NCBI GenBank assembly: GCA_023264975.1
Contig: JAHFUS010000003.1
Location: 26,921 to 90,920 of the forward strand
From: Actinomycetes bacterium
GTDB taxonomy: Bacteria > Actinomycetota > Acidimicrobiia > Acidimicrobiales > GCA-2861595
Length of the DNA: 64,000 nt
Reading direction: 5' to 3'
Shown: piece by piece, positions 1,279 to 27,326 of the stretch
Numbering within the stretch: position 1 is the stretch's first letter
How the letters are laid out: each line of letters opens with the position of its first letter
The notes under the pieces: generated by a model
The model's input: only the letters and a program-made list of their open reading frames with translations
Database searches by the model: none
What the model was told of the DNA's origin: nothing
Program-made: the position numbers and the translations under genes

Positions 1279-1914
1279 ATGCGACAGACCGGGAGTAGCG
1301 GGGACCGGTTCGCGAGCCTGGCCCGGAAGTCCGCCCTGTACGTGCTGGCGGGCGCCATCTGGGCGATGGTGTTCTGCGAGCCTGCGGGGGCGCCGTCTCA
1401 GTGGCAGGCGATGGTGGCCCGGCCTGTGAGCCCCTACGGCGAGATCAGCCGGGCCATGGCCGAGCGCACCGGCCAGTTGAGCGTGGCCGCCTCCCGGTCG
1501 GCGCCGCTCGTGGCGGTCGAAGAGGCGCCCGACATCGTGTGGCCGGCCCGGGGCGCCCTTACCGGTTGGTTCGGCGAGCGCCGGAGTGCCCACCGCCACC
1601 CGGGCGTCGACATCGACGGGGCGACGGGCGACGAGGTGGTGGCTGCCGCCGCCGGCCGCGTCATCGTGGCCGGCCCGGCGCCGGCCGGCTATGCCGGGTA
1701 CGGCACGGTGGTCATCATCGACCACGGCGAGGGCGTCACCAGCATCTCCGCCCACCTCTCCCGCACGGTGGTGAAGGCGGGCCAGGAGGTCGAGCCCGGC
1801 CAGCGCGTCGGCAGCGTGGGCACCAGCGGCAACGTCACCGGCTCCCATCTGCACTTCGAGCTCCGCAGGGGCGGCGTGGCGGTCGATCCGAAGGGCTGGC
1901 TACCCGGGCGCTGA
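1279..1914 (+). CDS. M23/LytM-family metallopeptidase
   Basis: Track ORF. M23 signatures are HRHPGVDID (HxxxD) and GSHLHFE (HxH), with GYGTVVIIDHGEGVTSISAHL between them. The N-terminal hydrophobic segment ALYVLAGAIWAMVF suggests export or anchoring. Confidence 0.85.
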   Translation: MRQTGSSGDRFASLARKSALYVLAGAIWAMVFCEPAGAPSQWQAMVARPVSPYGEISRAMAERTGQLSVAASRSAPLVAVEEAPDIVWPARGALTGWFGERRSAHRHPGVDIDGATGDEVVAAAAGRVIVAGPAPAGYAGYGTVVIIDHGEGVTSISAHLSRTVVKAGQEVEPGQRVGSVGTSGNVTGSHLHFELRRGGVAVDPKGWLPGR

Positions 1915-1955
1915 TCGCCGACGCCGCGTGAACGAGGGCGACATGGCCTGGGGGG

Positions 1956-2540
1956 TCACGCGGTCCGGCCAGGGCGCCGCACCAGGCCGGTGGGGCGCGG
2001 CGGCAGCGGCACGAGCCGGCGGCCCACCCGGCCGAGCACGGCGCCGAGGGCGGCCCCGGCGAGCACGTCGGAGGCGTGGTGGATGCGCACGTAGGCCCGG
2101 CTCGTGGACACCACGACGGCGAGGGCGTAGTACAGCGGCCACAACGGGTCGTCGTCGGCCAGCAGGGCGGCCACCGTGAAGGCGGCGGAGGCGTGCCCGC
2201 TGGGGAACGAACTGGTGCGGGGGCGGCGGAGGGGGTGAGGGCGGTCGCCCTCGAACGCCGGCCGCGAGCGGCGGAACAGCGACTTGATACCCACGTTGAC
2301 CAGGGCCGACTCGGCGAACACGCCGGCGCCCACCCGCATGGCGGCATACCAGTCGTGCTCCGAGCGCAGGCCCCGCAGCGCCCCGAGGATGAGCCAGCCC
2401 ACGCTGTGGTCGAACACGGCGGAGGCCCCGTAGAAGACCCGGTCGGCAGCGGCGTGGCCGCGGAGGTGGTCGAGGGCGGCGTCGGCCCACGCGTCGAAGT
2501 CGGCGACGCCCCGGCGGGCGTGTCGGGAGAGCAATGGCAC
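1956..2540 (-). CDS. PAP2-family (acid phosphatase / lipid phosphate phosphatase) membrane protein
   Basis: All three PAP2 motifs are present in order: KSLFRRSRP, PSGH and SRAYVRIHHASD. There are several hydrophobic segments. Confidence 0.85.
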   Translation of the reverse strand: MPLLSRHARRGVADFDAWADAALDHLRGHAAADRVFYGASAVFDHSVGWLILGALRGLRSEHDWYAAMRVGAGVFAESALVNVGIKSLFRRSRPAFEGDRPHPLRRPRTSSFPSGHASAAFTVAALLADDDPLWPLYYALAVVVSTSRAYVRIHHASDVLAGAALGAVLGRVGRRLVPLPPRPTGLVRRPGRTA

Positions 2541-2715
2541 GGGGCCGGAAGTCCCGCCTCTCAGCCGGCGACGGCGCCGGCGAGCACGCCGCTCGCCGGT
2601 CGGGGGTCGCCGCCGATCGCCGGGCGGTAGTCCTTGAACGACGCCACCCGCGAGGGCGACAGCGAGGTGGGAAGCGGCGACGCCATCGAAGGCAGGCTAG
2701 GCGGCGGTGAGACGG

Positions 2716-3558
2716 TCAGAGGCGTCCGAAGGCGGTGGCCACGGCCTGCGCCACCAGGTCGGGGTCTTCGAGGGGGGCCAGGTGCCCGACGCCGGGGAGG
2801 ACGTCGACCCGCCCGTTCGGAAGACGTTCGGCCCAGGCCTCCAGCACGCCGGCCGGAACGGCGACGGAGGCGTCACCCCGCGCCAGCACGACGGGGCAGC
2901 GGACGTCGCCCAGGCGCCGGCGCACGTCGTGGGCGAAGCCGTACTCATACATGTGGGCCTCGTGTTCGGGCCGGCACTTGAGGCGGACGGAGCCGTCCTC
3001 GGCGTCGGCGAACCCGTGCTCCACGTAGGCATGCAGCCCCTCGGGCGACAGGGCGGACAGGGGCGGCTTGGCGCCGTAGGTCGCTTCCGCCTCCTCCCGG
3101 GAGGCGAACGCGGCGCGCCGGCGCCGGGCCCCGACGGCCATGGGGCGGTCGGGCATGGGCGGGTAGTCGTCGTCGGTCGGCGGCCCGATCGGCTCGAAGC
3201 AGTAGAGGGCGGAGAACGTGCCGGGCCGGGCCGCCTCGGCCAGGAGCAGGGCGGTTGCGCCGCTCGAATGGGCGAGCCCGAGGGGCCGGTCGAGCCCGAG
3301 GGCGTCGACCACCGCCAGCGCGTCCCGGGCCAGCGTCGCCCAGTCCCAGCCATCGGCCGGGTCGCCCTCGACGACGGAGTCGCCGTGGCCGCGCACGTCG
3401 TAGGCGATGCAGTGGAAGCGGTCCGCCAGCCGGCGGGCGACGGGCTCCCACGCCCGCCCGTGGAACCCGGCGGCGTGGGCGAGGAAGACGTCGGGGCCGC
3501 TCCCGCCAAGGTCGTGCACGGCGATCGCAGGCCCACCGGGCACGGGGACGGTGCGCAT
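2716..3558 (-). CDS. Alpha/beta-fold hydrolase
   Basis: HG oxyanion region (VFLAHAAGFHG), nucleophile elbow LAHSSGA, and a C-terminal GVGHLAPLEDP histidine motif. Length 280 aa. Confidence 0.85.
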   Translation of the reverse strand: MRTVPVPGGPAIAVHDLGGSGPDVFLAHAAGFHGRAWEPVARRLADRFHCIAYDVRGHGDSVVEGDPADGWDWATLARDALAVVDALGLDRPLGLAHSSGATALLLAEAARPGTFSALYCFEPIGPPTDDDYPPMPDRPMAVGARRRRAAFASREEAEATYGAKPPLSALSPEGLHAYVEHGFADAEDGSVRLKCRPEHEAHMYEYGFAHDVRRRLGDVRCPVVLARGDASVAVPAGVLEAWAERLPNGRVDVLPGVGHLAPLEDPDLVAQAVATAFGRL

Positions 3559-3615
3559 CGGGCGAAGCTACCCCCGCGGGTGGTCCGCTCGGCGAAGGGA
3601 GGCCGCTAGCCTCCC

Positions 3616-4029
3616 ATGGTGGACTCCACCACCGAGGTGCGAGACGCCAACCGGGCCTTTTACGAGGCCTTCGAGGCGCGCGACCTCGACGCCATGTCGG
3701 GCGTGTGGGAGCGTTCCGAGCGGGCGCTGTGCACCCATCCCGGCTGGGCGACCCTCCAGGGGTGGGGGGCGGTGGCGTCGTCGTTCTTCGCCCTCTTCCA
3801 GAACGCGCAGTCGCTCCAGTTCGTGCTCACCGAGGAGCGGGTGCAGGTGCAGGACGGGGTGGCGTGGGTGACCGTCGACGAGAACCTGCTGGGGGACCAG
3901 GGCGGCTCAACGGTGGCGGCCGTGAACGTGTTCGTGCGTGACGCGGCCGGGGGTGGGTGGCGGCTGGTGTGCCACCACGGTTCGCTGGTCAGCTCCAGCA
4001 CGCCGTCAGAGGGCGACGAGAGCGGCTAG
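3616..4029 (+). CDS. SnoaL/NTF2-like (DUF4440-type) small protein
   Basis: The N-terminal ANRAFYEAFEARDLDAMSGVWE and C-terminal GGWRLVCHHGS patterns are typical of the NTF2-like fold family. Length 137 aa. The 3' end overlaps the convergent DUF72 gene by 24 nt. Confidence 0.7.
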   Translation: MVDSTTEVRDANRAFYEAFEARDLDAMSGVWERSERALCTHPGWATLQGWGAVASSFFALFQNAQSLQFVLTEERVQVQDGVAWVTVDENLLGDQGGSTVAAVNVFVRDAAGGGWRLVCHHGSLVSSSTPSEGDESG

Positions 4030-4890
4030 CTCCGCCGCGTTGGACACGGCGTCGTCGCGCCAGCAGTTGGAGAACAGCACGTGCACCTCGGCCGCGCCCG
4101 CGGCCAGCTCCCGGATCGGCTCCACCCACGCCGCCAGCTCGTCGGCCGGGTACCTGTAGGCGTAGCGCTCGCCGATCTCCAGATCGGGCTCGTCCCAGTT
4201 TCCCGGATTGCGGCCACCGAAGCGCACCACGGCCAGATCGCTGGTGGTGGCCACCACCGGCGGGCCCTGTCTCGGGTCCACACATACGAACCCGAGGTCC
4301 TGCTCCTCCAGGAACTCCAGTGTGGACTCGCACTCCCGGGCCTCGAGCCACCGCCGGTGGGTGAGCTCCACCGCCAGCGCCATGGCCGGAAGCTCCGCAC
4401 GCGCCTCGGCCAGCAGCCTGCGGCCGGTGTCGCCCGGCGGCAGCCACGCCGGGTACCGCAGGATCACGGCGCCGAGGCGGCCGTTGGCGGCGAGCGGCGC
4501 CAGGGCGTGGCGGAAGCGGGCCCACGCCTCCTGGCGGCCGGCCGGGGACAGGTGGTTGAGGTACAGCCGCCGACGGTCGCGGAGCTCGGGTCGCACCTCC
4601 TCGCGCAGGTCCTCCCACAGCGAGTCGGGTAGTGCGGCGCCACCGCACAGAAGCGTCCAGGCGGCCACGTCGATGGTGAAGTCGGCCGGCGTGCGGTCGA
4701 CCCACTGGCGGGACAGGTCAGGGGTGGGCGGGAAGCGCGCGGTGGCGTCGATCTCCACCAGCGGGAACTGCGCCGCGTAGTAGGCGATCCGCTCGGCCGC
4801 CTTCATCGAGCGCTTGGGGTACCAGCCGCTCTCGTGCACCAGCGTCCGCTCGGACCACGAGCTCGTGCCCACCAGGATGCGGGCGGTCAA
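4006..4890 (-). CDS. DUF72 (UPF0759) family protein
   Basis: This is the C-terminal 294 aa of track ORF 4006-6090. It starts at TTG (4890-4888), giving LTARILVGTSSWS, the canonical DUF72 N-terminus (IGTSGW). The TTGA overlap with the stop of the upstream oxidoreductase suggests translational coupling. Confidence 0.8.
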   Translation of the reverse strand: MTARILVGTSSWSERTLVHESGWYPKRSMKAAERIAYYAAQFPLVEIDATARFPPTPDLSRQWVDRTPADFTIDVAAWTLLCGGAALPDSLWEDLREEVRPELRDRRRLYLNHLSPAGRQEAWARFRHALAPLAANGRLGAVILRYPAWLPPGDTGRRLLAEARAELPAMALAVELTHRRWLEARECESTLEFLEEQDLGFVCVDPRQGPPVVATTSDLAVVRFGGRNPGNWDEPDLEIGERYAYRYPADELAAWVEPIRELAAGAAEVHVLFSNCWRDDAVSNAAELAALVAL

Positions 4891-8485: not shown

Positions 8486-9553
8486 ATGGACCTGCCCGTG
8501 ATGCCGCCAGTGGCGCCGATGCTGGCCAAGCCGGCCAAGGCGCTGCCGGCCGCGGGTGGGATGCTCTTCGAGCCCAAGTGGGACGGGTTCCGCTGCATCG
8601 TGTTCCGCGACGGCGACGAGGTGGAACTGGGCAGCCGGAACGAGAAGCCCCTCACCCGCTACTTCCCCGAGGTGGTCGCCGCCATCCGGGACCAGCTGCC
8701 CGCCAAGGTGGTGCTCGACGGGGAGATCGTGATCGCCGCCGACAAGGGGCTCGACTTTGAGGCGCTCCTACAGCGCATCCACCCGGCGGACTCGCGGGTG
8801 AAGCGCCTGGCCGAGGAGACGCCGGCGTCGTTCGTGGCCTTCGACATCCTCGCCCTCGACGACCGCGACCTCCGCAAGGTGGTGTTCGCCGAGCGCCGGG
8901 GCCTGCTGTGCGAGGCCCTGGCCGGCGTCCGCCCGCCGGTCCACGTCACCCCCTGTACCGACGACCGCGAGGTGGCCACCGACTGGTTCCACCGCTTCGA
9001 GGGCGCCGGACTCGACGGCGTGATCGCCAAGCCATCCGACCTCTCGTACCGGGAGAACGTCCGGGCCATGGTGAAGGTGAAGCACGAGCGCACGGCCGAC
9101 TGCGCCGTCGTCGGCTTCCGCTGGCACAAGAGCGGCCCCATCGTCGGCTCCCTCGTGCTCGGCCTCTACGACGACGACGGGCTGCTCCACCATGTCGGGG
9201 TGAGCGCGTCGTTCACCATGCAGCGCCGCAAGGAACTGGTCGACGAGCTGGCCCCGTACCGGGTCGAGAAGGAGGAGCCGGAGGGCGGGCGGGCCGGGCA
9301 CGGCTTCGACGGCCGGGCCCCCCAGGCCCACAGCCGCTGGAACGCCGGCCGCGACCTCTCCTTCGAGCCGCTGCGGCTGGAGCTCGTCTGCGAAGTGGCC
9401 TACGACCACCTGGAAGGTCAGCGCTTCCGCCACGCCACCACGTTCCGCCGGTGGCGGCCCGACCGGGAGCCACGGTCCTGCACCTACGCCCAGCTCGACA
9501 CGGCCGTTCCCGAGGAGCTGGCCAAGGTGTTCGGGGCGACCTCGTCCTCCTGA
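8486..9553 (+). CDS. ligC: ATP-dependent DNA ligase, stand-alone ligase domain (LigC-like)
   Basis: Motif I EPKWDGFR (adenylated Lys), followed by FVAFDIL, GLDGVIAK and VKVKHERTADCAVVG. At 355 aa it has no polymerase or nuclease extension, as in mycobacterial LigC. Confidence 0.85.
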   Translation: MDLPVMPPVAPMLAKPAKALPAAGGMLFEPKWDGFRCIVFRDGDEVELGSRNEKPLTRYFPEVVAAIRDQLPAKVVLDGEIVIAADKGLDFEALLQRIHPADSRVKRLAEETPASFVAFDILALDDRDLRKVVFAERRGLLCEALAGVRPPVHVTPCTDDREVATDWFHRFEGAGLDGVIAKPSDLSYRENVRAMVKVKHERTADCAVVGFRWHKSGPIVGSLVLGLYDDDGLLHHVGVSASFTMQRRKELVDELAPYRVEKEEPEGGRAGHGFDGRAPQAHSRWNAGRDLSFEPLRLELVCEVAYDHLEGQRFRHATTFRRWRPDREPRSCTYAQLDTAVPEELAKVFGATSSS

Positions 9554-9689
9554 CCGTTTTTCACAGTCTGACCACATGCCGTCGCCGCATGTGGAAAGTC
9601 GGCACTTCCGGCCTGCCCCTGCCGCCGGTCAGCCACCGGGGTACTGCTAGTTTCGCCCGGTTGTTCCCCCTAGGCAGGAGCCCGCGGAC

Positions 9690-11264
9690 ATGACCATGAC
9701 CCCACCCAGGCAGAAGGTCGATCGCGACGAGGTCTTCCTCGAGTACACCAAGAGCATCTGCCCCGTCTGCAAGACGGTCATCGACGCCGAGGTGAACGTC
9801 AAGGACAACAAGGTCTTCCTGCGCAAGCGCTGCGCCGAGCACGGCAAGTTCGAGGCCCTCCTCTACGGAGACGCCGAGATGTACTTCGCCTCGATGAAGT
9901 ACAACAAGCCGGGGACGTACCCGCTGGAGACCCAGACCGAGGTCAAGGACGGCTGCCCGCTCGACTGCGGCCTGTGCCCCGAGCACAAGCAGCACGCCTG
10001 CCTCGGCATCATCGAGGTCAACAGCGGTTGCAACCTCGACTGCCCCATCTGCTTCGCCGACTCGGGCCACCAGCCCGACGGCTTCTCGCTCACCATGGAC
10101 CAGGTGGAGGCCGGCCTCGACGCCTTCGTGCGCTCCGAGGGCGAGCCCGAGGTCGTGATGTTCTCGGGCGGCGAGCCCACCATCCACCCCCTCATCCTCG
10201 ACTTCATCAAGATGGCGCAGGACAAGGGCGTCCACATGGTGACGCTCAACACCAACGGCATCCGCCTGGCCCACGACCGCAACTTCGTGCGCCAGCTGGC
10301 CGAGCTGAAGCCCACGATCTACATGCAGTTCGACGGCTTCGACCCCGAGACCCACATCAAGATCCGCGGCCGTGACCTGCGCGAGGCCAAGCAGAAGGCG
10401 CTCGACAACTGCGCCGAGTTCGGCCTCGGCGTCTCCCTGGTGGCGGCCATCGAGAAGGGCCTCAACGAGCACGAGCTGGGCGACATCATCCGCTTCGGCA
10501 TAAAGCACCCGGCCGTGAAGTCCGTGGCCTACCAGCCGGTCACCCACTCCGGTCGCCACGTGGAGTTCGACCCCATGCAGCGGCTCACCAACTCCGACAT
10601 CATCCACGGCCTGGTGGACCAGTGCAGCGACTGGTTCAAGCTCTCCGACTTCGTGCCCGTGCCGTGCTGCTTCCCCACCTGCCGCTCCATCACCTACCTG
10701 CTGGTGGAGGGCGACAACGTGGTGCCCATCCCGCGCCTGCTCGACGTGGACAACTACCTCGACTACGTGAGCAACCGGGTCATGCCCGACATGAGCGTGC
10801 GGGGCGCCCTGGAGAAGCTGTGGAGCGCGTCGGCCGTCCCCGGCGGCGACGGCAACACCAGCAGCCAACTGGAGTGCGCCACCTGCGGCATCGACCTGCC
10901 GGAGGCGCTGAAGGACATCGCCGACAAGTCGTTCATGGTCGTGATCCAGGACTTCCAGGACCCCTACACGCTCAACGTGAAGGCCCTGATGAAGTGCTGC
11001 GTCGAGGAGATCACCCCCGACGGCCGCCTCATCCCCTTCTGCGCCTACAACTCGGTGGGCTACCGCGAGGAGATCCGTGAGCAGCTCAGCGGCGCCTTCG
11101 TGCCCACCATCGTGCCCAACGCCACCGAGCTCCAGCCCATCCTCCTCACCACCAAGTACGGCTCCAAGATGTTCGGCCAGGCGGCCAACGGCGGCGACGA
11201 GGCGTCCGACCCGTCCAAGCACGTCCCCGCCGACGCCACCAACATCGGCAAGACCCTCCGGTGA
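9690..11264 (+). CDS. Radical SAM enzyme with N-terminal zinc-ribbon and extra Cys clusters (COG1964 / MJ0619-Tes-like architecture)
   Basis: CxxxCxxC cluster GCNLDCPICF (about 10028-10051) followed by FSGGEPT. The N-terminal ICPVCKTVI...CAEHG looks like a zinc ribbon. Additional Cys clusters are CPLDCGLCPEHKQHAC, PCCFPTC (about 10655-10685) and KCCVEEITPDGRLIPFCAYN. Confidence 0.85.
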   Translation: MTMTPPRQKVDRDEVFLEYTKSICPVCKTVIDAEVNVKDNKVFLRKRCAEHGKFEALLYGDAEMYFASMKYNKPGTYPLETQTEVKDGCPLDCGLCPEHKQHACLGIIEVNSGCNLDCPICFADSGHQPDGFSLTMDQVEAGLDAFVRSEGEPEVVMFSGGEPTIHPLILDFIKMAQDKGVHMVTLNTNGIRLAHDRNFVRQLAELKPTIYMQFDGFDPETHIKIRGRDLREAKQKALDNCAEFGLGVSLVAAIEKGLNEHELGDIIRFGIKHPAVKSVAYQPVTHSGRHVEFDPMQRLTNSDIIHGLVDQCSDWFKLSDFVPVPCCFPTCRSITYLLVEGDNVVPIPRLLDVDNYLDYVSNRVMPDMSVRGALEKLWSASAVPGGDGNTSSQLECATCGIDLPEALKDIADKSFMVVIQDFQDPYTLNVKALMKCCVEEITPDGRLIPFCAYNSVGYREEIREQLSGAFVPTIVPNATELQPILLTTKYGSKMFGQAANGGDEASDPSKHVPADATNIGKTLR

Positions 11265-11282
11265 GCCCCCGAAGCCGGTCCC

Positions 11283-11319
11283 GAGTAAATAGGGTGTCAA
11301 AACGACGCCCTATTTACTC
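11283..11319. repeat. AT-rich inverted repeat (12-bp perfect arms, 13-nt spacer) between the radical-SAM and methyltransferase genes
   Basis: GAGTAAATAGGG (11283-11294) pairs with CCCTATTTACTC (11308-11319). It stands out as an AT-rich island in about 70% GC DNA. It could be an operator or an attenuator/terminator. Confidence 0.5.
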
Positions 11320-11328
11320 GAAAGGCGG

Positions 11329-12132
11329 GTGGGGGGCGTGAGCGAGGCGGCGCAGGACCCCGAGGACGTGAAGCTGTGCTGCGCCACCGCGTACCAGCGT
11401 GACGCCGTCGCCCTGATCCTGGGCGAGTCTTACCACCCGGGCGGGCTCGATCTCACCCGCCGGCTGGGGCGGGCCCTCGAGCTGCGGCGGGGCCAGCGGG
11501 TGCTCGACGTGGCCAGCGGGCCCGGCGCCACCGCGTTCCTCCTGGCCGCCGAGTTCGGTGTGGCCGTGGAGGGCGTGGACCTGGGCGACCAGTCGGTCGC
11601 TTCGGCCAACGCCAAGGCGGCGGCCAACGGCCTGGGCGACACGGTGCGCTTCACCGTTGGCGACGCCGAGCGGCTGCCCCTCGACGACGAGTCGGTCGAC
11701 GCGGTGGTGTGCGAGTGCGCCTTCTGCACGTTCCCCGACAAGGCCACCGCCGCGTCGGAGATGGCCCGGGTGCTCAAGCCCGGCGGGCGCATCGGGATCA
11801 CCGACGTGGCCCTCGACCCCAACCGCCTGCACGACGAGCTGAAGACGCTGGCCGGATGGGTGGCCTGCCTTGCCGACGCCCGGCCCGTGGAGCAGTACGT
11901 CGACCTCCTCGGCGACGCCGGCCTGAAGGTCACCGTGCGGGAGGACCACCACGACGCCCTGGCCAAGATGATCGACCAGATCGACGCCCGCCTCATCGCC
12001 TTCCGCATGGCCAGGGTGCCGGCGCTGGAGTCGATCGACTTCGACACCGCCCGCCAGCGGGTCGCCTTGGCCGCCCAGGCCGTGCGCGACGGCATCGCCG
12101 GCTACACCCTGCTGATCGCCGAGAAGGTCTAG
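11329..12132 (+). CDS. Class I SAM-dependent methyltransferase, ArsM (arsenite methyltransferase)-like
   Basis: SAM motif I is VLDVASGPGATAF. The layout is ArsM-like: N-terminal CC pair (VKLCCATAY), CECAFCTFPDK where ArsM has SNCVINLSPDK, VLKPGGRIGITDV, and WVACLADA where ArsM has the CIAGA cysteine. The GCGNP cysteine is replaced (SYHPGG). Confidence 0.75.
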   Translation: MGGVSEAAQDPEDVKLCCATAYQRDAVALILGESYHPGGLDLTRRLGRALELRRGQRVLDVASGPGATAFLLAAEFGVAVEGVDLGDQSVASANAKAAANGLGDTVRFTVGDAERLPLDDESVDAVVCECAFCTFPDKATAASEMARVLKPGGRIGITDVALDPNRLHDELKTLAGWVACLADARPVEQYVDLLGDAGLKVTVREDHHDALAKMIDQIDARLIAFRMARVPALESIDFDTARQRVALAAQAVRDGIAGYTLLIAEKV

Positions 12133-12258
12133 CCCCCCCGTTCTCGTCGGCGTGGAGCGGACTTCGCGCCGTTGTACCGACAGGAACGGACCGGCTGCTC
12201 GCAGGACCGGCGTCGATCGGGCATGCTCTGGGGCATTCACGCTTCCGGAGGTCGCCAG

Positions 12259-12636
12259 ATGCACCGTCGAGTCGCCGCGTTCGCCGTCGTCCTGCTGAGC
12301 GGGCTGGTGCTCGCCGGCTGCGGTGCAGACGACACGGGCGGCGCTGTCGCCGAGCCGCCCGCCGCCGACGTGAAGAAGGTCGACGTGAAGGCGGCCGGCT
12401 TCGCCTTCAACCCGACCGCGATCCAGCTCACGGCGGGCGAGGACGTGCAGTTCGTGATCGACAACGGCGACGAGGTCGAGCACAGCCTCACCATCGACGG
12501 CCTCGGCGTGGACCAGGACGTCGAGGGCGGGAAGTCCGCCGAGGCGCCTGTCACCAAGGACCTCAAGGCAGGCACCTACAAGTACCACTGCAAATACCAC
12601 CCGGCGCAGATGCAGGGGACCGTCACCGTCACCTGA
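12259..12636 (+). CDS. Cupredoxin-fold (type-1 copper) lipoprotein
   Basis: ATG at 12259 is preceded by GGAGG. The signal ends in lipobox LAGC. Candidate ligand set is EH...C-x2-H-x3-M (VEHSL ... YHCKYHPAQM). Confidence 0.75.
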   Translation: MHRRVAAFAVVLLSGLVLAGCGADDTGGAVAEPPAADVKKVDVKAAGFAFNPTAIQLTAGEDVQFVIDNGDEVEHSLTIDGLGVDQDVEGGKSAEAPVTKDLKAGTYKYHCKYHPAQMQGTVTVT

Positions 12637-12660
12637 CGAGGGCCTGAGCCTTCGTAGGGG

Positions 12661-12863
12661 CTACAGCGGGCGGAAGCGGCGCAGGCGGAGGCTATTGGAG
12701 ACGACGAACACGCTCGACAGGCCCATCGACGCCCATAGCTCTGCGGCTCGCCGTCGGGGCGGGTGATGACGAAGCGATAGGGCCCGCCCGCCGCATCGGG
12801 CGTCGTGGTTGCCGGCGCCGGCCAGGCCGGCGCCGAAGGCGGCAGCTGGGCGCGGGCGTTCAT
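12661..12863 (-). pseudogene. Remnant of a copper P-type ATPase (copA/ctpV-like) directly downstream of copZ
   Basis: The reverse strand ending at TAG (12663-12661) reads ...LWASMGLSSVFVVSNSLRLRRFRPL*, the characteristic last TM and C-terminus of CopA-type P1B ATPases. An ATG overlaps the copZ stop (ATGA at 12863-12860) and opens a different frame whose translation has no ATPase motifs. About 200 nt remain where about 2.2 kb would be expected. Confidence 0.5.
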
Positions 12864-13066
12864 GACGCCAGTTCGTAGCCGGCCTCGTCGACGGCCTCGG
12901 CCACCGAGGCCCGGTCCAGCGGCTCGGTGCTCTCCACGGTGACGGCGCCGGTGGCGAGGTCGACGTCCACCAGGGTGACGCCTTCGAGGTGGCTGAGCCC
13001 CGTGGTGACCGCGTTCTTGCAGTGGTCGCATGTCATGCCGGTGACGGTGAAGGTCTCGCTGGCCAT
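12860..13066 (-). CDS. copZ: Copper chaperone CopZ (heavy-metal-associated domain)
   Basis: ATG at 13066 is preceded by GAGGAG. The protein MASETFTVTGMTCDHCKNAV... carries the GMTCxxC motif. Length 68 aa. Confidence 0.85.
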   Translation of the reverse strand: MASETFTVTGMTCDHCKNAVTTGLSHLEGVTLVDVDLATGAVTVESTEPLDRASVAEAVDEAGYELAS

Positions 13067-13103
13067 GGTCGGCTCCTCGCTCTTGGGACTGCTGTAAAGA
13101 CAC

Positions 13104-13122
13104 CATACCCCACTAGGGTATG
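13104..13122. promoter_or_regulatory. CsoR-type operator-like palindrome upstream of copZ
   Basis: CATACCC-CACTA-GGGTATG has perfect 7-bp arms and lies 38 nt upstream of the copZ ATG. It resembles the ATACCC...GGGTAT operators bound by CsoR in Bacillus, Streptomyces and Mycobacterium. Confidence 0.5.
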
Positions 13123-13287
13123 ACCGACCGGGTCGCCGAGACTTCCGGGGGCGGCGGGCCGTCGGGTCGGCGAAACGCTGCGAGAAGGGTGACGACCTGC
13201 CGACCAGAATCACGGAACCGGACAGGAAGCTCGCAAAAGCGAGCGTAATTACTAGGAGAAGCTTGCGGGTGCGGCTACACTCGCCGA

Positions 13288-13695
13288 GTGGGGCCGAAGC
13301 ATGCGTACCGCCTGGGCCAGGCCGCCGAGCTCCTCGGCGTGAGCGTCGACACCGTGCGCCGGTGGGCCGACGACGGCCAGCTCGTCACGACCCGCACGGG
13401 GGGAGGGCAGCGCATGGTGGACGGCGCCTCGCTGGCGGCGTTCCTCGCCGACCACGGCGACGCCCCCGATGCGGCCGCCGTGGTCGGGCAGTCCGCCCGC
13501 AACCGACTCCCCGTCATTGTGACCCGGGTGGTGAAGGACAAGGTGGCGGCGCAGGTGGAGATGCGGGCCGGGCCCTTCCGGATCGTGTCGCTGATGACCC
13601 GGGAGGCGGCCGACGAGCTCGGCCTGGCGCCGGGCGTGCTGGCGGTGGCGTCGGTGAAGTCCACCAACGTGGTCGTCGAGCTCACCGCCCGGTGA
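13288..13695 (+). CDS. HTH (MerR/excisionase-type) plus TOBE/Mop-domain molybdate-responsive regulator
   Basis: The N-terminal YRLGQAAELLGVSVDTVRRWADDGQL is an HTH. The C-terminal SARNRLPVIVTRVVKDKVAAQVEMRAGPFRIVSLMT...VKSTNVVVE is a TOBE domain. Its stop overlaps the modA start (GTGATG at 13692-13697). Confidence 0.8.
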   Translation: MGPKHAYRLGQAAELLGVSVDTVRRWADDGQLVTTRTGGGQRMVDGASLAAFLADHGDAPDAAAVVGQSARNRLPVIVTRVVKDKVAAQVEMRAGPFRIVSLMTREAADELGLAPGVLAVASVKSTNVVVELTAR

Positions 13696-14516
13696 TGCCC
13701 CGCCGGGCATGCGCGATCGTGGCGCTCACGGTCTGCTGTGCGTTGGCAGCCGGCGCCTGTGGGTCGGGCAACGCAGCCACGACCACCACGGCGGCGACCG
13801 CCACGACCACGACTACAACCACGGTGGCCGACCCCGTGACGGGCGAACTCGTTGTGCTGGCCGCCTCGTCGCTCGTCGAACCGTTCGAGGAGCTGGGCCG
13901 GATGTTCGAGGCCGGGCACCCCGACGTGAAGGTGACCTTCAGCTTCGCCGGGTCCTCCGACCTGGCCCGCCAGATCGACGCCGGTGCGCCCGCCGACGTG
14001 TTCGCCAGCGCCGACGAGAAGACCATGGCGGCCGTGGTCGCCGCCGGGCAGGCCGCCGAGCCTGTGGTTGTGGCCCGCAACCGCCTGGCCGTCATCGTGG
14101 AGAAGGGCAACCCCAAGGGCGTCCGGACGCTGGCCGACCTGGCGAGGAGCGATGTCGTTCTTGTGCTTTGCGCAGCCGAGGTGCCGTGCGGCCGCCTGGC
14201 TGCGGCCGCCTTCCGGAAGGCCGGGGTGGCCGCCGAGCCGGCGTCGCTCGAAGCAAACGTGAAGGCCGTCGTGTCGAAGGTGACGCTGGGCGAGGCCGAT
14301 GCCGGCATCGTCTACCGCAGTGACGTGCAGGCGGCCCGCGACAAGGTTGAGGGCGTCGACGTGGTCGAAGGTGCCGACGCCGCCCTTCAGGCCGTGTACC
14401 CGGTGGCCCTCACCACGGCCGCCGCCAACCGGGTTGCAGCCAAGGCATGGGTGGACCTCGTCAGGTCAGCGGGCGGCCTGCGGGCGCTTGCGGCGGCGGG
14501 CTTCCTCGGGCCATGA
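13695..14516 (+). CDS. modA: Molybdate ABC transporter substrate-binding lipoprotein
   Basis: Signal plus lipobox (LAAGAC) and a Thr-rich linker. ModA-like core: LVVLAASSL...FSFAGSSDLARQI...DVFASAD...GIVYRSD. Confidence 0.85.
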   Translation: MPRRACAIVALTVCCALAAGACGSGNAATTTTAATATTTTTTTVADPVTGELVVLAASSLVEPFEELGRMFEAGHPDVKVTFSFAGSSDLARQIDAGAPADVFASADEKTMAAVVAAGQAAEPVVVARNRLAVIVEKGNPKGVRTLADLARSDVVLVLCAAEVPCGRLAAAAFRKAGVAAEPASLEANVKAVVSKVTLGEADAGIVYRSDVQAARDKVEGVDVVEGADAALQAVYPVALTTAAANRVAAKAWVDLVRSAGGLRALAAAGFLGP

Positions 14517-15304
14517 GCCGCCGGCCGGCGCTGTCGCCGGCGGTCGCCGTCCCTGCCGTTGCCGCCGGCGCCTTCCTCGCCCTGCCCCTCGCGGCCCTCG
14601 TGTGGCGGGCGCCGTGGGCCGCTCTATGGTCCGACCTCACCGATCCGGCCGCCCGCACGGCCCTGCGTCTCTCACTGGTCTGCTCACTGTGGGCCACCGT
14701 CCTGGCGGTGGGCCTGGGCCTGCCCCTGGCGTGGGCCCTGGCCCGGGTGCCGTTCCCGGGCCGGCGCCTGGTGCGCGCCTTGGTGCTCGTGCCCCTCGTG
14801 CTTCCGCCGGTGGTGGGCGGTGTCGCCCTGCTGCTGGCGCTCGGACGGCGGGGGGTGGTGGGCCGGTACCTCGACCAGTGGTTCTCCCTCAGACTGCCGT
14901 TCACCACGGCGGGGGCGGCCGTGGCCGAGGCCTTCGTGGCCATGCCCTTCCTGGTGCTCACCGCCGAGGCCGCCTTCCGCAGCGCCGACCGGCGCTACGA
15001 GGACGCCGCCCGCACCCTCGGCGCCGGCGGGTGGACGGTGTTCCGACGGGTCACGCTGCCCCTGACGTGGCCGGCGCTGGCCGCCGGCGGCCTGCTGGCG
15101 TGGGCGCGCGCCCTCGGCGAGTTCGGCGCCACCATCACCTTCGCCGGCAACGCTCCCGGTCGCACCACCACCATCCCCCTCCAGGTCTTCCTGCTGCTGG
15201 AGTCGGGCCGGCTCGGCTCCGCCCTGGCCCTCAGTCTGGTGCTCCTGGCCGTCTCGGTGACGGTGCTGGCCGTGCTGCGGGACCGGTGGCTGGGGGCCCT
15301 GTGA
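14513..15304 (+). CDS. modB: Molybdate ABC transporter permease
   Basis: ATGA overlap with modA. Multi-TM protein with an EAA-type loop (EDAARTLGAGGWTVFRRVTLP). Confidence 0.9.
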   Translation: MSRRPALSPAVAVPAVAAGAFLALPLAALVWRAPWAALWSDLTDPAARTALRLSLVCSLWATVLAVGLGLPLAWALARVPFPGRRLVRALVLVPLVLPPVVGGVALLLALGRRGVVGRYLDQWFSLRLPFTTAGAAVAEAFVAMPFLVLTAEAAFRSADRRYEDAARTLGAGGWTVFRRVTLPLTWPALAAGGLLAWARALGEFGATITFAGNAPGRTTTIPLQVFLLLESGRLGSALALSLVLLAVSVTVLAVLRDRWLGAL

Positions 15305-16365
15305 CCGCCTCCGACGGGCTCTCGGCCGAGGTCGAGGTCCGCCTCGGAGCGCTCGACCTGCGCGTCCGCTTGGCCGTGGCGCCGGGCGAGACGGTGGCCG
15401 TGCTCGGGCCCAACGGCGCCGGGAAGACCACTCTGCTGCGGGCCCTGGCCGGCCTCCACGATGTCGACTCCGGCACGGTCGTGCTCGACGGCGAGGTGCT
15501 GGAGGACACCGCCGGCGGTCGGCGGGTGCCCTGTGAGCAGCGTTCCGTCGGCATGGTGTTCCAGGCCAACCTGCTGTTCCCTCACATGTCCGCTCTCGAG
15601 AACGTGGCGTTCGGGCTGCGGGCGCGGGGCGTCCGCAAGGGCGAGGCGCGCCGGCGGGCGGGGGACTGGCTCGACCGGGTGGGGCTGGCTGCCCACGCCC
15701 AGGCCACGCCGGACCGGCTGTCCGGCGGCGAGGCCCAGCGTGTGGCCCTGGCCCGGGCGCTGGCCGGCGACCCTCGCCTCCTGCTGCTCGACGAGCCCCT
15801 GGCCGCCCTCGACGCCTCGGTCCGGGGCGCCATGCGGCGCGAACTCCGCACCCACCTCGCTGCTGCGCCCGGCGTCCGGGTGGTGGTGACGCACGATGCG
15901 GTGGATGCGGCTGCGCTGGCCGACCGCCTCGTGGTGCTCGAGGGCGGGCGGGTCACCCAGGAGGGAACGCTGGCCGAGCTCACCGCCCGCCCCCGGTCGC
16001 GGTACGTGGCCGACCTGGTGGGGGTGAACCTGTTCACGGGCCGGGCCGACGGCACGGCCGTCACCGTCACCGGCGGCTTCGTCCTCACCGTGGCGGAGCA
16101 GGCGTCGGGCGACGTGTTGGTGGCCGTGCCTCCCCGGGCTGTCACGCTCCATCACCGCCGGCCGGACGGGTCTCCCCGCAACGTCTGGGAGGCGTCGGCG
16201 GCGGCGGTCGAACATGAGGGCGACCGCGTCCGGGTGTCCCTGGCCGGCCCTGTCGCCATCGTGGCCGAGGTGACGGCGGCGGCGGCCGGCGAGCTGGCGC
16301 TGGAGGCGGGCGGCCCGGTGTGGGTGGCCGTGAAGGCCACCGAGATCGACGTCTTCCCCGCCTGA
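15301..16365 (+). CDS. modC: Molybdate ABC transporter ATPase with C-terminal TOBE-like domain
   Basis: GTGA overlap with modB. Walker A GPNGAGKT, signature LSGGEAQR, Walker B LLLLDEP. Confidence 0.9.
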   Translation: MTASDGLSAEVEVRLGALDLRVRLAVAPGETVAVLGPNGAGKTTLLRALAGLHDVDSGTVVLDGEVLEDTAGGRRVPCEQRSVGMVFQANLLFPHMSALENVAFGLRARGVRKGEARRRAGDWLDRVGLAAHAQATPDRLSGGEAQRVALARALAGDPRLLLLDEPLAALDASVRGAMRRELRTHLAAAPGVRVVVTHDAVDAAALADRLVVLEGGRVTQEGTLAELTARPRSRYVADLVGVNLFTGRADGTAVTVTGGFVLTVAEQASGDVLVAVPPRAVTLHHRRPDGSPRNVWEASAAAVEHEGDRVRVSLAGPVAIVAEVTAAAAGELALEAGGPVWVAVKATEIDVFPA

Positions 16366-26700: not shown

Positions 26701-27326
26701 TGCTGCGCGCCGCCGACGGGGACCAGCACGGCTCCGGCATCGTCCGCACCCGCTACCAGTTCAGCGGCACGGCCGCGGTCGCCCCGTGCACGGCCGCACC
26801 CTGCACGTACACGGGACCGTTCACCGTGCCCGAGGGCGTCTACCGGGTCACCTACTGGGCCGAGGACGTGGCCGGCAGAGTCCAGGCCCCGCAGACGCTG
26901 AAGGTTGCCGTCGACACCACGCCGCCCGTGCCCAAGGCCACCACCCCCAACCCGGCGCTGTGGCTGCGCAGCAAGCTGGGCCTGCCCCTCACCTCGCCCA
27001 CCGTCGACCTGCGCTGGACGCTGCAGGAGAATCTCTCCGGGGTGGCGTCAGCCGACAACACGCCGCCCGACAGGGCGAACGTGAAGGTCGTGGTCTACGA
27101 CGTGACGGGTTTCCCGGTGCGAACGCTGAACGCCGGCGACTTCGTGGTGACGCCGGGCCAGACCCTGGCCGGCAAGGCGGTGTGGGACGGCAAGGGTGCC
27201 AACCTCACGTCGCTGCTGCCGGTCGGCACGTACTACTACCGGGTGGTGGCCACCGACGCAGCCGGCAACGTGGCCATGAGCGGCGAGTCCACCAAGCTCG
27301 TCATCGCCGTCAGCCTGCTGCTTTAG
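17763..27326 (+). CDS. Giant (3187 aa) N-terminally anchored or secreted surface protein: long beta-rich region, Gly-rich beta-helix-like segment, C-terminal Ig-like array ending in a FlgD-Ig-like domain
   Basis: ATG at 17763 is in frame with track ORF 17175-27326. The N-terminus is MRTSMNALRTFGPMRRPWLLFIAGVLLIGAVLGS (TM or signal). A [DN]-[ILV]-P motif recurs through about 18600-22710. A Gly-rich block lies at about 24050-24700. Four or five modules carry (N)GW(Y/F)...D.AGN (OmpL47/chitobiase-C-like Ig), and the final module is WDGKGANLTSLLPVGTYYYRVVATDAAGNV (FlgD-Ig-like). GC3 is uniformly high over 9.5 kb. Confidence 0.85.
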   Translation: MRTSMNALRTFGPMRRPWLLFIAGVLLIGAVLGSRSTVDISGAEKTAVPFPSLVYGIEAESNGHQASILNLGIGYLNTLQAPLPVDVDGDLLPDVTVAVNLVDTQGLHNPPQPGDIIRPNVEINRFPLELGTTLLGRPSPPLKIKVVFKIYDLQGETDTMTAKFGYDTGPGGSIPGYFQATLDGITDFFSPVTATISTKGDIITQSSAPLWYQGPLTVIGGFQQGAFKADLGLGYAPFPDKVAVTYRHDDAGDHIDYTHAAEGEVDLLTKAVVEDKGERIDVAANVSRLPRTLGLDLLKAAQGGAVHFDTTADGRLPDADVRFKGPLLGDVFDAHLAIEDLPTSMDAKWSLPKDGPINAIFDSSGQGIGAIEAEIQNRNGAPTGLPPFLFAEKQIAAAQLNTATDALRLGARLERIRHAEVAATPAGNVDATINIGDGELPLQLAGFVDLRSKGGPLIDASSTFSPLPGTIGVSLKPAGDNQRTDPLKLVYSASEAVDVDARVLVRTKDATSATCGASGVICGDLRMRHIPTRIEARIGGFTNAEGKQETRIETDTVGPGHVDVFADVKVGPDVVNGVPAQLAGKPLVARLEMLGLARNARVRTIEGQDDTLQRTEFHSCAFDYAADACPAGTQGDRIGALQFGVANFLPTARPADLPPAYAATPNFATITARGRSNGTSVDFEATGRVSDIRELTYVNQGAFGYRSDIGGGGDLATLVDVDNIAFGAGGPGSDLFDVTGNVLIHPLPQRMSFCLNASGQAIVAPPSSITAPCQDKNPFSAAANRPSLTKSPMSVAYDGSRGDGSAQEFDVDVDAELLAHNGAGTDDDRRVRGTLDIDHIPATIHAHVLDPKDQAAGGPLKVLVDAPTLGPQLTVFAKASLLDGDLQCEDPRVPKRIDSDTTQASVCAQGRINNVPNRMTLAYDADAATDNFVLDGTGEKQLSFTDLKVAAVTRDEPTADDPPGTAARAQVLVATGEILGLPKRVEGTLKTPAPGRPDDPVLIDLTGTPLLVDQINASVRNFIAPDPIPDMPAQRQGLADPKAIGGDGKPAGDWASFIQRGDAFKADVHVSSIKRVGFKNQVDANGKALDTSVVSVDFGKDKVVRGYVDIDKDGTDRLIGDVTIEDIPAGIQVCVRPPTTKNITPAAGTATFCDNTPAPVAARAKTGAFEARMSSAVGAQLDVDAFVRSAKGGGADILSARVDIDNIPNVVRGTFGDGKVDVGGFTLAGVPDGIDRIYANAASFDLSDDLNRSDDGDGWTPATRPYSPRFVTRTPFPTPFPAGQHVAVRADDADFEVRARIGAVEPSVEPASDLHRIQLSDTPCGKPVGVDYGSGAPDYGPRPDFPFLPDDGSKYTCIRGDFEPVGPTEVDPLDLSVIIDKGGKRLSLEKGLLDDIPEFFQVNVADANPLQNQDDRRLRPHCIGLGRTQPANCVAPLVRLDTPGNARLSGIVQYGALADLGRLGTVRPREALPVDVDSAGNIAFAGNEIRARIGSFGASTAARAAFRIPIPASFTIDQVQSWSMSNVSGKPNYLDASDLHFRYAARNPDGSSIGVLLKLSAMIHSSADGTQILLSDDDPSQGVQIPGDLGVEMFTRNHNGNGRNFLQIDGRSTAPDLDLRARLLGTGGSPIGRLDAQVRNVPPAATAYPATNAPLTAYGEPSFRIRAETLGEGKEPPDPSGADSASGGEPPKEKECSPLLCILTQVRLKSVNVQFDFKPGTSPTYARLLEAVIRTDGTKNGVEVRGFSVIDNDVDNDGVIDQNIASPFLAGAQLDVDPINLFVHAGIPLLASLDFILLSDLDAAASVGGNFKNGTIWSTGQYDPGGLVPQLEGAGSTNFSLKQNLLKMTVSNNGPDGSFSQIGPIDFNVKVMHGEAWGLFVKLLGVDWVPPGSSLRLPFIECSTLGALNSEVVKVPEPLIDGDGDGSRSVVPWPFYSVLHPPGKIVYSGLLGGALTLVGDLAGPFFCVLDTDQDLIDDGAKPHPADPLGIGITQSKVPEARVDGSQLVQSADDTGPDLLPDITVGNSTPAMCGTKSYNNFTIPSGVTLNVATAADATKIDGVDACPAGAEGTVEIVATGNVTVNGVLEAGNRMILTNASGNGGGGHGVPPFLIFPEEGRGGNGGTSGSGGPAYGDRFGDFDIEVGRAGSATTTPAGNGGDAGKGGGSIKIIADKLSVGPSGAVRADGGGGSSKGTSPADCFDPDVDGNGPDTGHPNIGFAGGGGGAGGGIVLHLAEYAVAAGGSVSVNGGPGGAGSRGGGGGGGGGNVKLDTALVSGAVPTATGGAGGADLCGGNNTDDPGTAGGGGDTYGNPPVNVAPKSRVDIRKLSDADLKNFSFWNTTAGDKSLVVPYQAAAEVVGASDDFDVVLCATPRTTAIDLPTDKSLSEVLMPAQPGNVSLDNPCGTFGIGTIVGNPGLGQPGVQAVKHFSGRRTTSTFSVASMAESYYGLYTMLWKTTADGNDCFNPFDQGYDPFNPTSGRLFDVARCTAEPAPTSPDLSIGIDNAAPNIQNLVVNGVTVRGGDGSPVAGAQPVSSSAGTIAISWNDTDNLSKVVGRECTGANGAIGFRNCVSGQTVAMTNGDGTKTVAVRLIDGAGNTDTFTATVLVDTTVPASSGQVMTATATQLQNGWFLSSPGFRLFGYNDGAGTGAPAVPWEYQFDDGDLKPCNDLDCTIGDGPGEDLPGIGRHRLRWTAIDKVGNKFTADDNPNTPGVDGRQQLAVKVDGAKPISALLSVPATPNGANGWYSGATWITFGAFDQPGASGFKKAVDDTTQIGGVAFQITHEGVTTPGTFDVANPSPVRLEPGTSTVCWQAKDQAGNVDLSMADQCRTFKVDEADPVTSLPTTANTPDGVAGWYTTKPVVNPTVADGGTLGSGVGTDTVNLCTQNPLIAAPAPTGTCISIDGAPFIPVDHNADKYLVTLGEGLHEMRAFSTDAAGRRSAITTRLYQVDLSNPVAVARTIMARASAGKWWREVPTVVLRAADGDQHGSGIVRTRYQFSGTAAVAPCTAAPCTYTGPFTVPEGVYRVTYWAEDVAGRVQAPQTLKVAVDTTPPVPKATTPNPALWLRSKLGLPLTSPTVDLRWTLQENLSGVASADNTPPDRANVKVVVYDVTGFPVRTLNAGDFVVTPGQTLAGKAVWDGKGANLTSLLPVGTYYYRVVATDAAGNVAMSGESTKLVIAVSLLL

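Follow-up and report, generated by a model that had tools for sequence, protein, structure and literature searches.

A conserved gene pair of a Tes-like radical-SAM protein and a partly ArsM-like methyltransferase in Acidimicrobiales and other bacteria

A conserved pair of adjacent genes

We analysed a 64,000-nt stretch (hereafter the window) of contig JAHFUS010000003.1 (GenBank assembly GCA_023264975.1, forward-strand positions 26,921–90,920) from an Actinomycetes bacterium of the order Acidimicrobiales, in which two adjacent open reading frames (ORFs) encode a radical S-adenosylmethionine (SAM) protein and a methyltransferase (Table 1). A previous sequence-only reading had proposed that the two form an organo-metalloid pathway or one making another carbon–heteroatom (C–X) bond. 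Both ORFs and all motifs quoted in it translate as claimed, and a recount confirmed a gap of exactly 64 nt between the genes. The radical-SAM protein contains the Pfam domains Zn_ribbon_HMPTM (PF23545, 1e-17) and Radical_SAM (PF04055, 5e-23), and the methyltransferase matches Methyltransf_11 (1e-22) as well as Methyltransf_25 and Methyltransf_31. Given these domains and the thousands of database homologues of each protein, both are genuine genes and not shadow ORFs of high-GC DNA (GC content of the window, approximately 70–75%). The closest relatives (92–94% protein identity) belong to metagenome-assembled genomes of Acidimicrobiales/Actinomycetota. An antisense ORF of 579 aa (9561–11300, minus strand) spans the entire radical-SAM gene; it was rejected as a gene, being a high-GC shadow that clusters across loci only through conservation of the sense gene.

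Table 1. Features of the gene pair and its surroundings (positions in the window)
Feature	Position	Strand	Description
Radical-SAM gene	9690–11264	+	524 aa, ATG start; unnamed clade of the Tes/TrsS (GDGT-MAS, HMPTM zinc-ribbon) superfamily
N-terminal ribbon CPVC...C..H (aa 24–51)	9735–9866	+	Rubredoxin-like; C24/C27/C48/H51 correspond to GDGT-MAS C9/C12/C33/H36 (7TOL alignment)
CPLDCGLCPEHKQHAC (aa 89–104)	9954–10001	+	C89/C93/C96/H99 match C73/C77/C80 and His, which ligate [4Fe-4S]N in Tes
CNLDCPIC (aa 114–121)	10029–10052	+	Canonical CX3CX2C radical-SAM cluster motif, C114/C118/C121
PCCFPTC (aa 325–331)	10662–10682	+	C331 corresponds to M. jannaschii C338, universal in the superfamily; presumed [4Fe-4S]C ligand
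CATC	10875–10886	+	CxxC pair C396/C399; shared by the query clade with a few related non-Tes clades, but not with M. jannaschii Tes
MVVIQDFQD	10935–10961	+	Q420 stands where Tes [4Fe-4S]C has its labile ligand Met439 (HMMER alignment)
MKCCVEEITPDGRLIPFCAYN, including KCC...PFCAYN (aa 435–454)	10989–11051	+	C436/C451 correspond to M. jannaschii C455/C470, universal
Spacer	11265–11328	+	64 nt; 17-bp hairpin (11282–11320), then the Shine–Dalgarno-like AAAGGCGG and a GTG start
Methyltransferase gene	11329–12132	+	267 aa, GTG start; class-I SAM-dependent, DVU_1556/ArsM-like lineage
KLCCATAY (aa 15–22)	11371–11394	+	N-terminal Cys pair; C17 in 75/77, C18 in 76/77
YHPGGL	11431–11448	+	H36 invariant (77/77), at the ArsM GCG Cys position
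DAVVCECAFCTFPDK, including CECAFCTFPDK (aa 128–138)	11698–11742	+	C130 aligns with the As(III)-binding Cys of ArsM 'SNC'
WVACLADA (aa 177–184)	11857–11880	+	C180 invariant (77/77), aligns with the As(III)-binding Cys of ArsM 'ECLAGA'
Cupredoxin gene	12172–12636	+	Starts 39 nt after the methyltransferase gene
CopZ-like HMA protein gene	12860–13213	−	
ModE-like gene	13288–13695		Helix-turn-helix and TOBE domains
ModA/ModB/ModC-like genes	13692–16365		
ORF of 442 aa	16438–17766		No Pfam match; precedes the 3383-aa ORF
ORF of 3383 aa	17175–27326		Sole Pfam match, a weak Big_13 Ig-like domain near the C terminus

We scanned one genome per species and found 582 relatives, of which the best 80 loci were retained. 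At 76 of these 80 loci, the radical-SAM gene is directly followed by a methyltransferase homologue in the same orientation; three of the misses are contig ends, leaving 76 of 77 evaluable loci and a single genuine miss (L062). The paired loci span Actinomycetota, Chloroflexota, Dormibacterota and Acidobacteriota. Chance adjacency was rejected on the basis of this count and of natural fusions in relatives, and the census that the sequence-only reading had proposed thus yielded strong co-conservation. In properly called genes, from which alone spacings were taken, the usual arrangement is a 4-nt overlap of the two ORFs. At one locus (L082, one Actinomycetota metagenome contig), a second, more generic methyltransferase gene (10459–11226) follows the partner methyltransferase, also with a 4-nt overlap; its product scored 69.9 bits with the DVU_1556 family, with the C-terminal half unmatched.

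The pairing predates the query clade. The superfamily includes two families named by NCBIfam, Tes (also GDGT-MAS; MJ0619 of Methanocaldococcus jannaschii) and the radical-SAM (seleno)protein TrsS, and a methyltransferase gene stands downstream of the radical-SAM gene in the true TrsS clade (L085, overlapping its 3′ end), the P0247 clade (L086/87), the P0270 clade (L092) and the P0246 clade (L094/95, identified by Pfam only), and two genes upstream in a Desulfovibrio-type locus (L096). The partners at L085, L086 and L092 are ArsM-like (PRK11873, 228.5, 150.8 and 124.6 bits) and, in an alignment of the three, carry motifs such as CGN/SNCVINL/GCISGA and GCD/TNCVLNL/TCLAGA. Two further representatives (P0338 and P0379) are single polypeptides with the methyltransferase N-terminal to the radical-SAM domain and the same Cys motifs. 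No methyltransferase partner was found at the true Tes loci (P0354; L088–90) or beside P0365 (L093), which is Tes-like by a table of ligand sites, with no NCBIfam scoring. The gene downstream of P0262 (L091) was rejected as a methyltransferase, as it is NifE/D-like and the contig ends there; this contig carries, at 1625–4888, a MIP/aquaglyceroporin gene, the radical-SAM gene and an overlapping NifE/NifD-like (nitrogenase-family) gene.

The radical-SAM protein and its superfamily

The sole close solved relative of the radical-SAM protein is M. jannaschii GDGT-MAS/Tes (PDB 7TOL, E = 1.8e-79), and the next match is MoaA (1e-5). An AlphaFold 2 (AF2) model (predicted local distance difference test score (pLDDT), 72) superposed on 7TOM and 7TOL with template modelling (TM) scores of 0.70 and 0.74 over approximately 489 columns; the next fold reached at most 0.40. 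The Pfam domains, the 7TOL match and the superposition bear out the MJ0619/Tes architecture proposed in the sequence-only reading. That reading had also named the radical-SAM/ArsM pairs of ArsS and ArsL as precedents, for which we found no specific relation: every full-length match is to Tes/TrsS, and the precedents are therefore analogies only. The 25 best NCBIfam matches (down to 28 bits) included no arsenic-related radical-SAM family, the strong ones being Tes and TrsS at approximately 1e-100. The scores with Tes (NF045702, 343.5 bits; cutoff, 450) and TrsS (NF045646, 348.7 bits; cutoff, 490) are nearly equal and both are below the cutoffs; therefore, the protein belongs to neither named family.

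The metal sites were mapped using the published GDGT-MAS ligands (PMC9433317, PMC13459092). The protein shares with Tes the four-domain architecture over approximately 490 residues at 32–35% identity, the rubredoxin-like CX2C...CX2H ribbon (ligands kept in 76–80 of the 80 family sequences), [4Fe-4S]N and the CX3CX2C motif. It differs in the replacement of Met439 by Gln, in additional conserved residues and in having no isoprenoid genes nearby. H102 and C104, which follow the [4Fe-4S]N ligands, are invariant (80/80) and typical of non-Tes members (Thr and Ile in M. jannaschii Tes). C326 is likewise a non-Tes marker, and C437 is conserved within the same division; C327 is clade-specific. The PCCFPTC cysteines are kept in 80/80 family sequences, and their distribution was read from a site table of 97 representatives. 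In the CATC motif, C396 is found in 80/80 sequences and C399 in 66/80, with 13 alignment gaps. Despite the change of Met439 to Q420, the three presumed [4Fe-4S]C cysteines (C331, C436 and C451) are retained. A C-terminal tail of approximately 55 aa (residues ~470–524; 11100–11264) with conserved residues VPN...L...GS...N.G..L is found in Actinomycetota members, and the Chloroflexota, Dormibacterota and Acidobacteriota matches stop at residues ~466–469; the model is of low confidence in this tail.

We searched 1.84 billion cluster representatives exhaustively and recovered 717 clusters at E ≤ 1e-30, from which we built the ligand-site table over 97 full-length representatives and sampled nine clades or contexts. 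Near-universal among the 97 are the three N-terminal sites and the three C-terminal cysteines equivalent to C331, C436 and C451, presumed to be the [4Fe-4S]C ligands. The sequences nearest to M. jannaschii Tes, including the true Tes representative P0354 (638 bits with the NCBIfam Tes model), carry the Met equivalent to Met439 and lack conserved counterparts of query C104 and C326. A large second division, to which the query belongs, has H102, C104, C326 and usually C437, and mostly His, Gln or Lys at the Met439 position. Loss of the Met ligand marks the query's clade and most other non-Tes clades; true TrsS (P0306, 502 bits) is a member of the second division yet retains Met at position 420. 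The query clade adds C327, C396, C399 and Gln420, kept in 66–80 of the 80 sequences. As judged from these alignments, the Tes scaffold is retained and altered precisely around the cluster at which Tes forms its C–S intermediate. Some superfamily members are fused to other domains (P0286, P0327, P0336 and P0324: Lgt with radical SAM; MobA-like nucleotidyl (NTP) transferase, with or without HD, with radical SAM; and radical SAM with DUF5714), and the C-terminal cluster cysteines are entirely missing from the Lgt-fused group and from P0269, P0291, P0296, P0311, P0331 and P0360.

With GDGT-MAS as the nearest solved structure and the three presumed coupling-cluster cysteines in place, the protein might be a bacterial synthase of tetraether or other membrane-spanning lipids, performing Tes-type C(sp3)–C(sp3) coupling to yield brGDGTs (branched glycerol dialkyl glycerol tetraethers) or diabolic-acid-type lipids, with the methyltransferase as an accessory lipid methylase. 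Phospholipid genes lie nearby, the clade includes Bryobacterales (L077 and L079) and bacterial Tes homologues have been treated as brGDGT candidates (PMC8941075, PMC11868695). Nevertheless, the Tes score is short of its cutoff, the Met439 position is altered and the extra cysteines are left unexplained; an obligate, four-Cys, ArsM-like partner would have no role in C–C coupling, and the Tes loci examined have no methyltransferase. Streptomyces, Saccharopolyspora and Mycobacterium, which are among the hosts, are not known to make spanning lipids. We regard a tetraether synthase as unlikely.

The partner methyltransferase and the genomic contexts

The best NCBIfam family for the methyltransferase is DVU_1556 (NF045667, 141.8 bits; just under the cutoff of 155), followed by ArsM (PRK11873, 107.6 bits; below the cutoff of 263), three ArsM-type selenoprotein families and UbiE. 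Both proteins fall in known superfamilies, and NCBIfam already names a sister pair, TrsS and the DVU_1556 methyltransferase, which are the best-scoring named families for the two genes. The resemblance extends to the pairing itself (verified in L085 and L096), to H102, C104 and C326 and to thiol-redox neighbours; the differences are the Met of TrsS, the position of both query proteins below the cutoffs and the DVU_1556 model of 213 residues, which leaves the N-terminal CC/HPGG extension of the query uncovered. In PDB searches, the full-length protein best matched generic small-molecule methyltransferases, and residues 112–267 alone gave Chlamydomonas ArsM (5EVJ) as the top match. The AF2 model (pLDDT 82) is nearest in fold to small-molecule methyltransferases such as TleD, RebM and PMT. 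The likeness to ArsM is local, at the catalytic loops, and not global: of the ArsM-like layout that had been proposed, the loops with C130 and C180 and the second-best NCBIfam rank of ArsM stood, and the overall fold did not.

Residue conservation was counted over 77 sequences from four phyla. Shared with ArsM are the class-I core, an 'xxC' after strand 4 followed by PDK, and 'CLAxA'; the query also has an N-terminal Cys pair. The C-terminal domain of ArsM is absent and no ars genes are nearby. Aligned to 5EVJ with HMMER, the two As(III)-binding positions match, and C130 is found in 77/77 sequences as well as in all clade partners and fusions examined. The GCG-type Cys is absent, as the sequence-only reading had noted, and is replaced by the invariant His of HPGG; in the TrsS and P0270 clades, the partner methyltransferase does have a Cys here, within a CGN or GCD motif. 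The N-terminal CC pair recurs in the P0247-clade methyltransferase and in the fused methyltransferase domains, and has no confident alignment with the N-terminal Cys of ArsM (CmArsM Cys44), in a region where the model is of low confidence.

The conserved cysteines in both partners, the tight coupling and the fusions would also suit a two-component radical C-methylase, in which the methyltransferase methylates a Cys (its own or one of the radical-SAM CC pair), as in RlmN/Cfr, and the radical-SAM enzyme moves the methyl group to an unactivated carbon; the InterPro family was historically named 'Methyltransferase_Class_D'. However, the original pterin-methylase assignment of MJ0619 has been overturned (PMC9433317), there is no precedent for an ArsM-type methyltransferase as methyl-Cys donor, and the recurrent disulfide reductases described below would be unexplained. 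We consider such a C-methylase quite unlikely.

The spacer hairpin in the window is AT-rich (CGAGTAAATAGGGTGTC-AAAAC-GACGCCCTATTTACTCG) in a genome of approximately 70% GC. The spacer folds with a ΔG of −46.6 kcal/mol (z = −5.56), and the repeat is unique within the window. One relative (L003) has an equivalent hairpin with conserved outer arms and compensatory changes in the inner stem; another (L001) has a different, GC-rich hairpin at the spacer and a third (L002) has none. The hairpin had no match in Rfam; it could act as an operator or, as an intercistronic RNA element, fix the ratio of radical-SAM protein to methyltransferase. A promoter and terminator scan of 9300–13300 found nothing, and is uninformative at this GC content.

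An ATP-dependent DNA ligase gene lies upstream of the pair in the window, and the cupredoxin, CopZ-like and molybdate genes that had suggested a metal-handling neighbourhood are present downstream (Table 1). The cupredoxin gene directly follows the pair only in the window and its closest relative (L001), and lies farther off in L023 and the P0035 context; it may be co-transcribed with the pair in this lineage. By contrast with their presence here, copZ and the mod genes do not recur in the clade: tblastn with the cupredoxin, CopZ, ModE-like and ligase proteins found only the closest one to three relatives, besides one weak distant match each for cupredoxin and CopZ, and a functional copper or molybdate context was rejected for the clade. 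Farther downstream, the 442-aa and 3383-aa ORFs are probably giant surface or secreted proteins.

Across the clade, at approximately 77 loci, we counted the Pfam families of the first two called genes upstream and downstream of the pair. Among 132 upstream ORFs, Pyr_redox_2 was commonest (13), followed by MauE (6), SRPBCC (5), DUF3179 (4) and Lgt (3); the 135 downstream ORFs included PlsY (9), SRPBCC (9), CDP-alcohol phosphatidyltransferase (7) and Pyr_redox_2 (5). The upstream flavoprotein, a pyridine nucleotide-disulfide oxidoreductase (PNDR), resembles MerA but scores under the cutoff of that family (386 versus 454). In Streptomyces caeni, the genes form a single overlapping operon (a 187-aa protein, DUF427, PNDR, MauE, radical SAM and methyltransferase), and further contexts contain thioredoxin, AhpC/TlpA-like redoxins, CcdA, DsrE-like proteins, rhodanese and an extracytoplasmic function (ECF) sigma factor with a zf-HC2 anti-sigma factor. 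MauE has recently been linked to disulfide-bond formation (bioRxiv 10.64898/2026.03.05.709764).

The sampled related clades stand in other surroundings. On the archaeal contig of L085 (2512–13586), TrsS and its methyltransferase lie between two URO-D family (MtaA-like) genes, with the corrinoid activator RACo and mcrBDGA; the locus also encodes corrinoid methyltransferases and a DVU_1557-like redox protein. L096 (1–9864) encodes, in order, a molybdenum hydroxylase, a dicluster PNDR, DUF7479, the methyltransferase, a C_GCAxxG_C_C protein, the radical-SAM protein, an AMP-ligase, XdhC and a sigma-54 activator, a cluster that ties one radical-SAM–methyltransferase clade to molybdenum-cofactor enzymes. 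The P0270 clade has B12-radical-SAM, Lgt and glycosyltransferase genes nearby. Common across the clades are the radical-SAM–methyltransferase core and thiol-redox proteins, to which the query clade adds recurrent glycerolipid enzymes.

A further possibility is that the pair matures or modifies a metallocofactor or a protein, be it the molybdenum cofactor, a copper site or an Fe–S protein, with no lipid taking part. The Desulfovibrio-type cluster, which sets the pair between molybdenum hydroxylase, XdhC and redox proteins, points this way, as do the MobA-like fusions and the modE-like, modABC, cupredoxin and CopZ genes within 4 kb of the pair in the window. Yet these mod and cop genes are not conserved and the Tes-like fold favours a hydrophobic substrate. 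Furthermore, the Trs accessory genes (AMP-ligase, C_GCAxxG_C_C, the DUF7479 redox protein, XdhC and molybdenum hydroxylase) are absent at the query: tblastn with the L096 proteins found none near the pair in the window or at the 80 clade loci (L001–L080). On balance, we judge a maturation role rather improbable.

The ArsM-type cysteines raise the alternative of soluble organoarsenical biosynthesis or detoxification, lipid-free and similar to ArsS/ArsM (arsenosugar) or ArsL/ArsM (arsinothricin). Homologues of the methyltransferase are often labelled arsenite methyltransferase by JGI pipelines, ArsR-family regulators occur near the pair in two contexts, and radical-SAM/ArsM pairs have a precedent (bioRxiv 10.1101/2024.02.01.577332), with the shared logic of a radical-SAM enzyme that forms a carbon–heteroatom bond and an ArsM-type methyltransferase. 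However, ArsS and ArsL belong to radical-SAM subfamilies unrelated to this enzyme beyond the superfamily core; they attach part of SAM to arsenic, whereas a Tes-like enzyme takes a hydrogen atom from a distinct hydrophobic substrate. Neither Acr3, ArsB or ArsC nor a dedicated permease was found, the sequences are very highly conserved between phyla, and the neighbours peculiar to the clade encode redox and lipid functions. In the window flanks examined, we likewise saw no ArsR, ArsB, Acr3 or ArsC, in agreement with the sequence-only reading. We hold a soluble arsenical product to be very unlikely.

Possible chemistry and implications

The reading that we tentatively favour, as a possible rather than a probable account, is that the pair combines the radical-based activation of a substrate that is hydrophobic and probably a lipid with thiol-dependent methyl transfer onto a thiophilic atom. 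The two proteins would be a catalytic module that probably works as a complex. By homology to GDGT-MAS, the radical-SAM enzyme would bind a hydrophobic substrate, for which the hydrocarbon tail of a membrane glycerolipid is the likeliest candidate; the hydrophobic tunnel of GDGT-MAS binds lipid tails, including those of bacterial phospholipids (PMC9433317). SAM would be cleaved at the CX3CX2C cluster, and the 5′-deoxyadenosyl radical would remove H from an unactivated sp3 carbon. Tes captures the resulting carbon radical on its C-terminal cluster and then couples a second lipid tail. In the query clade, with the labile Met replaced and a Cys/His-rich site gained (H102, C104, C326, C327, C396, C399 and C437), the radical may be trapped by a thiolate-held thiophilic atom X. 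Candidates for X are As(III), by the precedent of ArsM and because of the homology of the methyltransferase, and Cys-persulfide sulfur or selenium, because of the neighbourhoods and the absence of ars genes. As its ArsM-type motifs suggest, the methyltransferase would hold X through C130, C180 and the N-terminal CC pair and methylate it with a second SAM. Gene context suggests that the resulting disulfide of the methyltransferase would be re-reduced by the adjacent MerA-like flavoprotein, thioredoxin or MauE or, where no reductase adjoins, as in this window, by housekeeping thioredoxin. The product would be a methyl-X-alkyl lipid, for example a methylthio- or methylarsino-lipid. MiaB/RimO methylthiotransferases offer an analogy, not homology, in radical C–H activation, an auxiliary Fe–S site for C–S bond formation and SAM-dependent methylation of sulfur; these are single polypeptides of another radical-SAM subfamily and act on tRNA or protein.

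This lipid–methyl-transfer reading is suggested by the full-length Tes architecture with all four predicted metal sites, in a clade that appears to differ from Tes exactly at the coupling cluster, and by four essentially invariant methyltransferase cysteines, two of which align with ArsM metalloid-binding positions. Also in its favour are the ArsM-like partners in three further clades, the near-universal adjacency, the 4-nt overlaps, the methyltransferase–radical-SAM fusions, the absence of a methyltransferase at the Tes loci examined, and the recurrent thiol/disulfide and glycerolipid neighbours together with the Lgt–radical-SAM fusion.

Several observations weigh against it. All members are known from sequence alone. 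Related clades lie in very different contexts (molybdenum hydroxylase/XdhC; corrinoid/MCR); therefore, the substrate may not be lipid throughout, or at all. There is no third universal gene, the next commonest cluster occurring at 21 of the 80 loci, so that the neighbour themes are peculiar to individual clades and may be coincidental. The shortfall of the methyltransferase from the ArsM cutoff is wide, its GCG Cys is missing and ArsM is not within the Foldseek top 50 for its model. No arsenic resistance or transport genes (ArsB, Acr3 or ArsC) were seen beside the pair in any context examined; of the organo-metalloid pathway first proposed, the hedge towards another C–X bond or a non-arsenic substrate survives best. 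Cultured hosts, such as Streptomyces, are not known to contain such lipids.

A narrower conjecture is that the pair is the missing arsenolipid synthase, in which a Tes-like radical at the end of an acyl or alkyl chain would be joined to an As(III) that the partner binds and methylates. We give this little credence, and the accessible literature held no link between arsenolipids and radical SAM. If it were true, the products would be omega-dimethylarsinoyl fatty acids and hydrocarbons, and soil and marine Actinomycetota, SAR202-type Chloroflexota, Dormibacterota and Acidobacteriota would be unrecognised arsenolipid producers.

Bacteria that do not synthesise biphytanyl chains also have GDGT-MAS homologues, whose reactions have been stated to be unknown (PMC9433317). 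In the accessible literature, nothing apart from the NCBIfam names ties the second division to a methyltransferase partner, and the locus tags DVU_1554–1556 are not mentioned. The bacterial homologues split into Tes proper and a large division with extra Cys/His residues, whose ArsM-like methyltransferase is either an obligate partner or fused. [quoted passage not shown] Tes homologues in Chloroflexota, Actinomycetota and Acidobacteriota have been counted as evidence of brGDGTs (PMC8941075, PMC11868695); if this division performs different chemistry, such inferences of brGDGT production are inflated. If the favoured reading is true, the transfer of a lipid radical onto a heteroatom held by thiolates would add a new reaction to radical-SAM chemistry, and could explain methylthio- or arseno-lipids.

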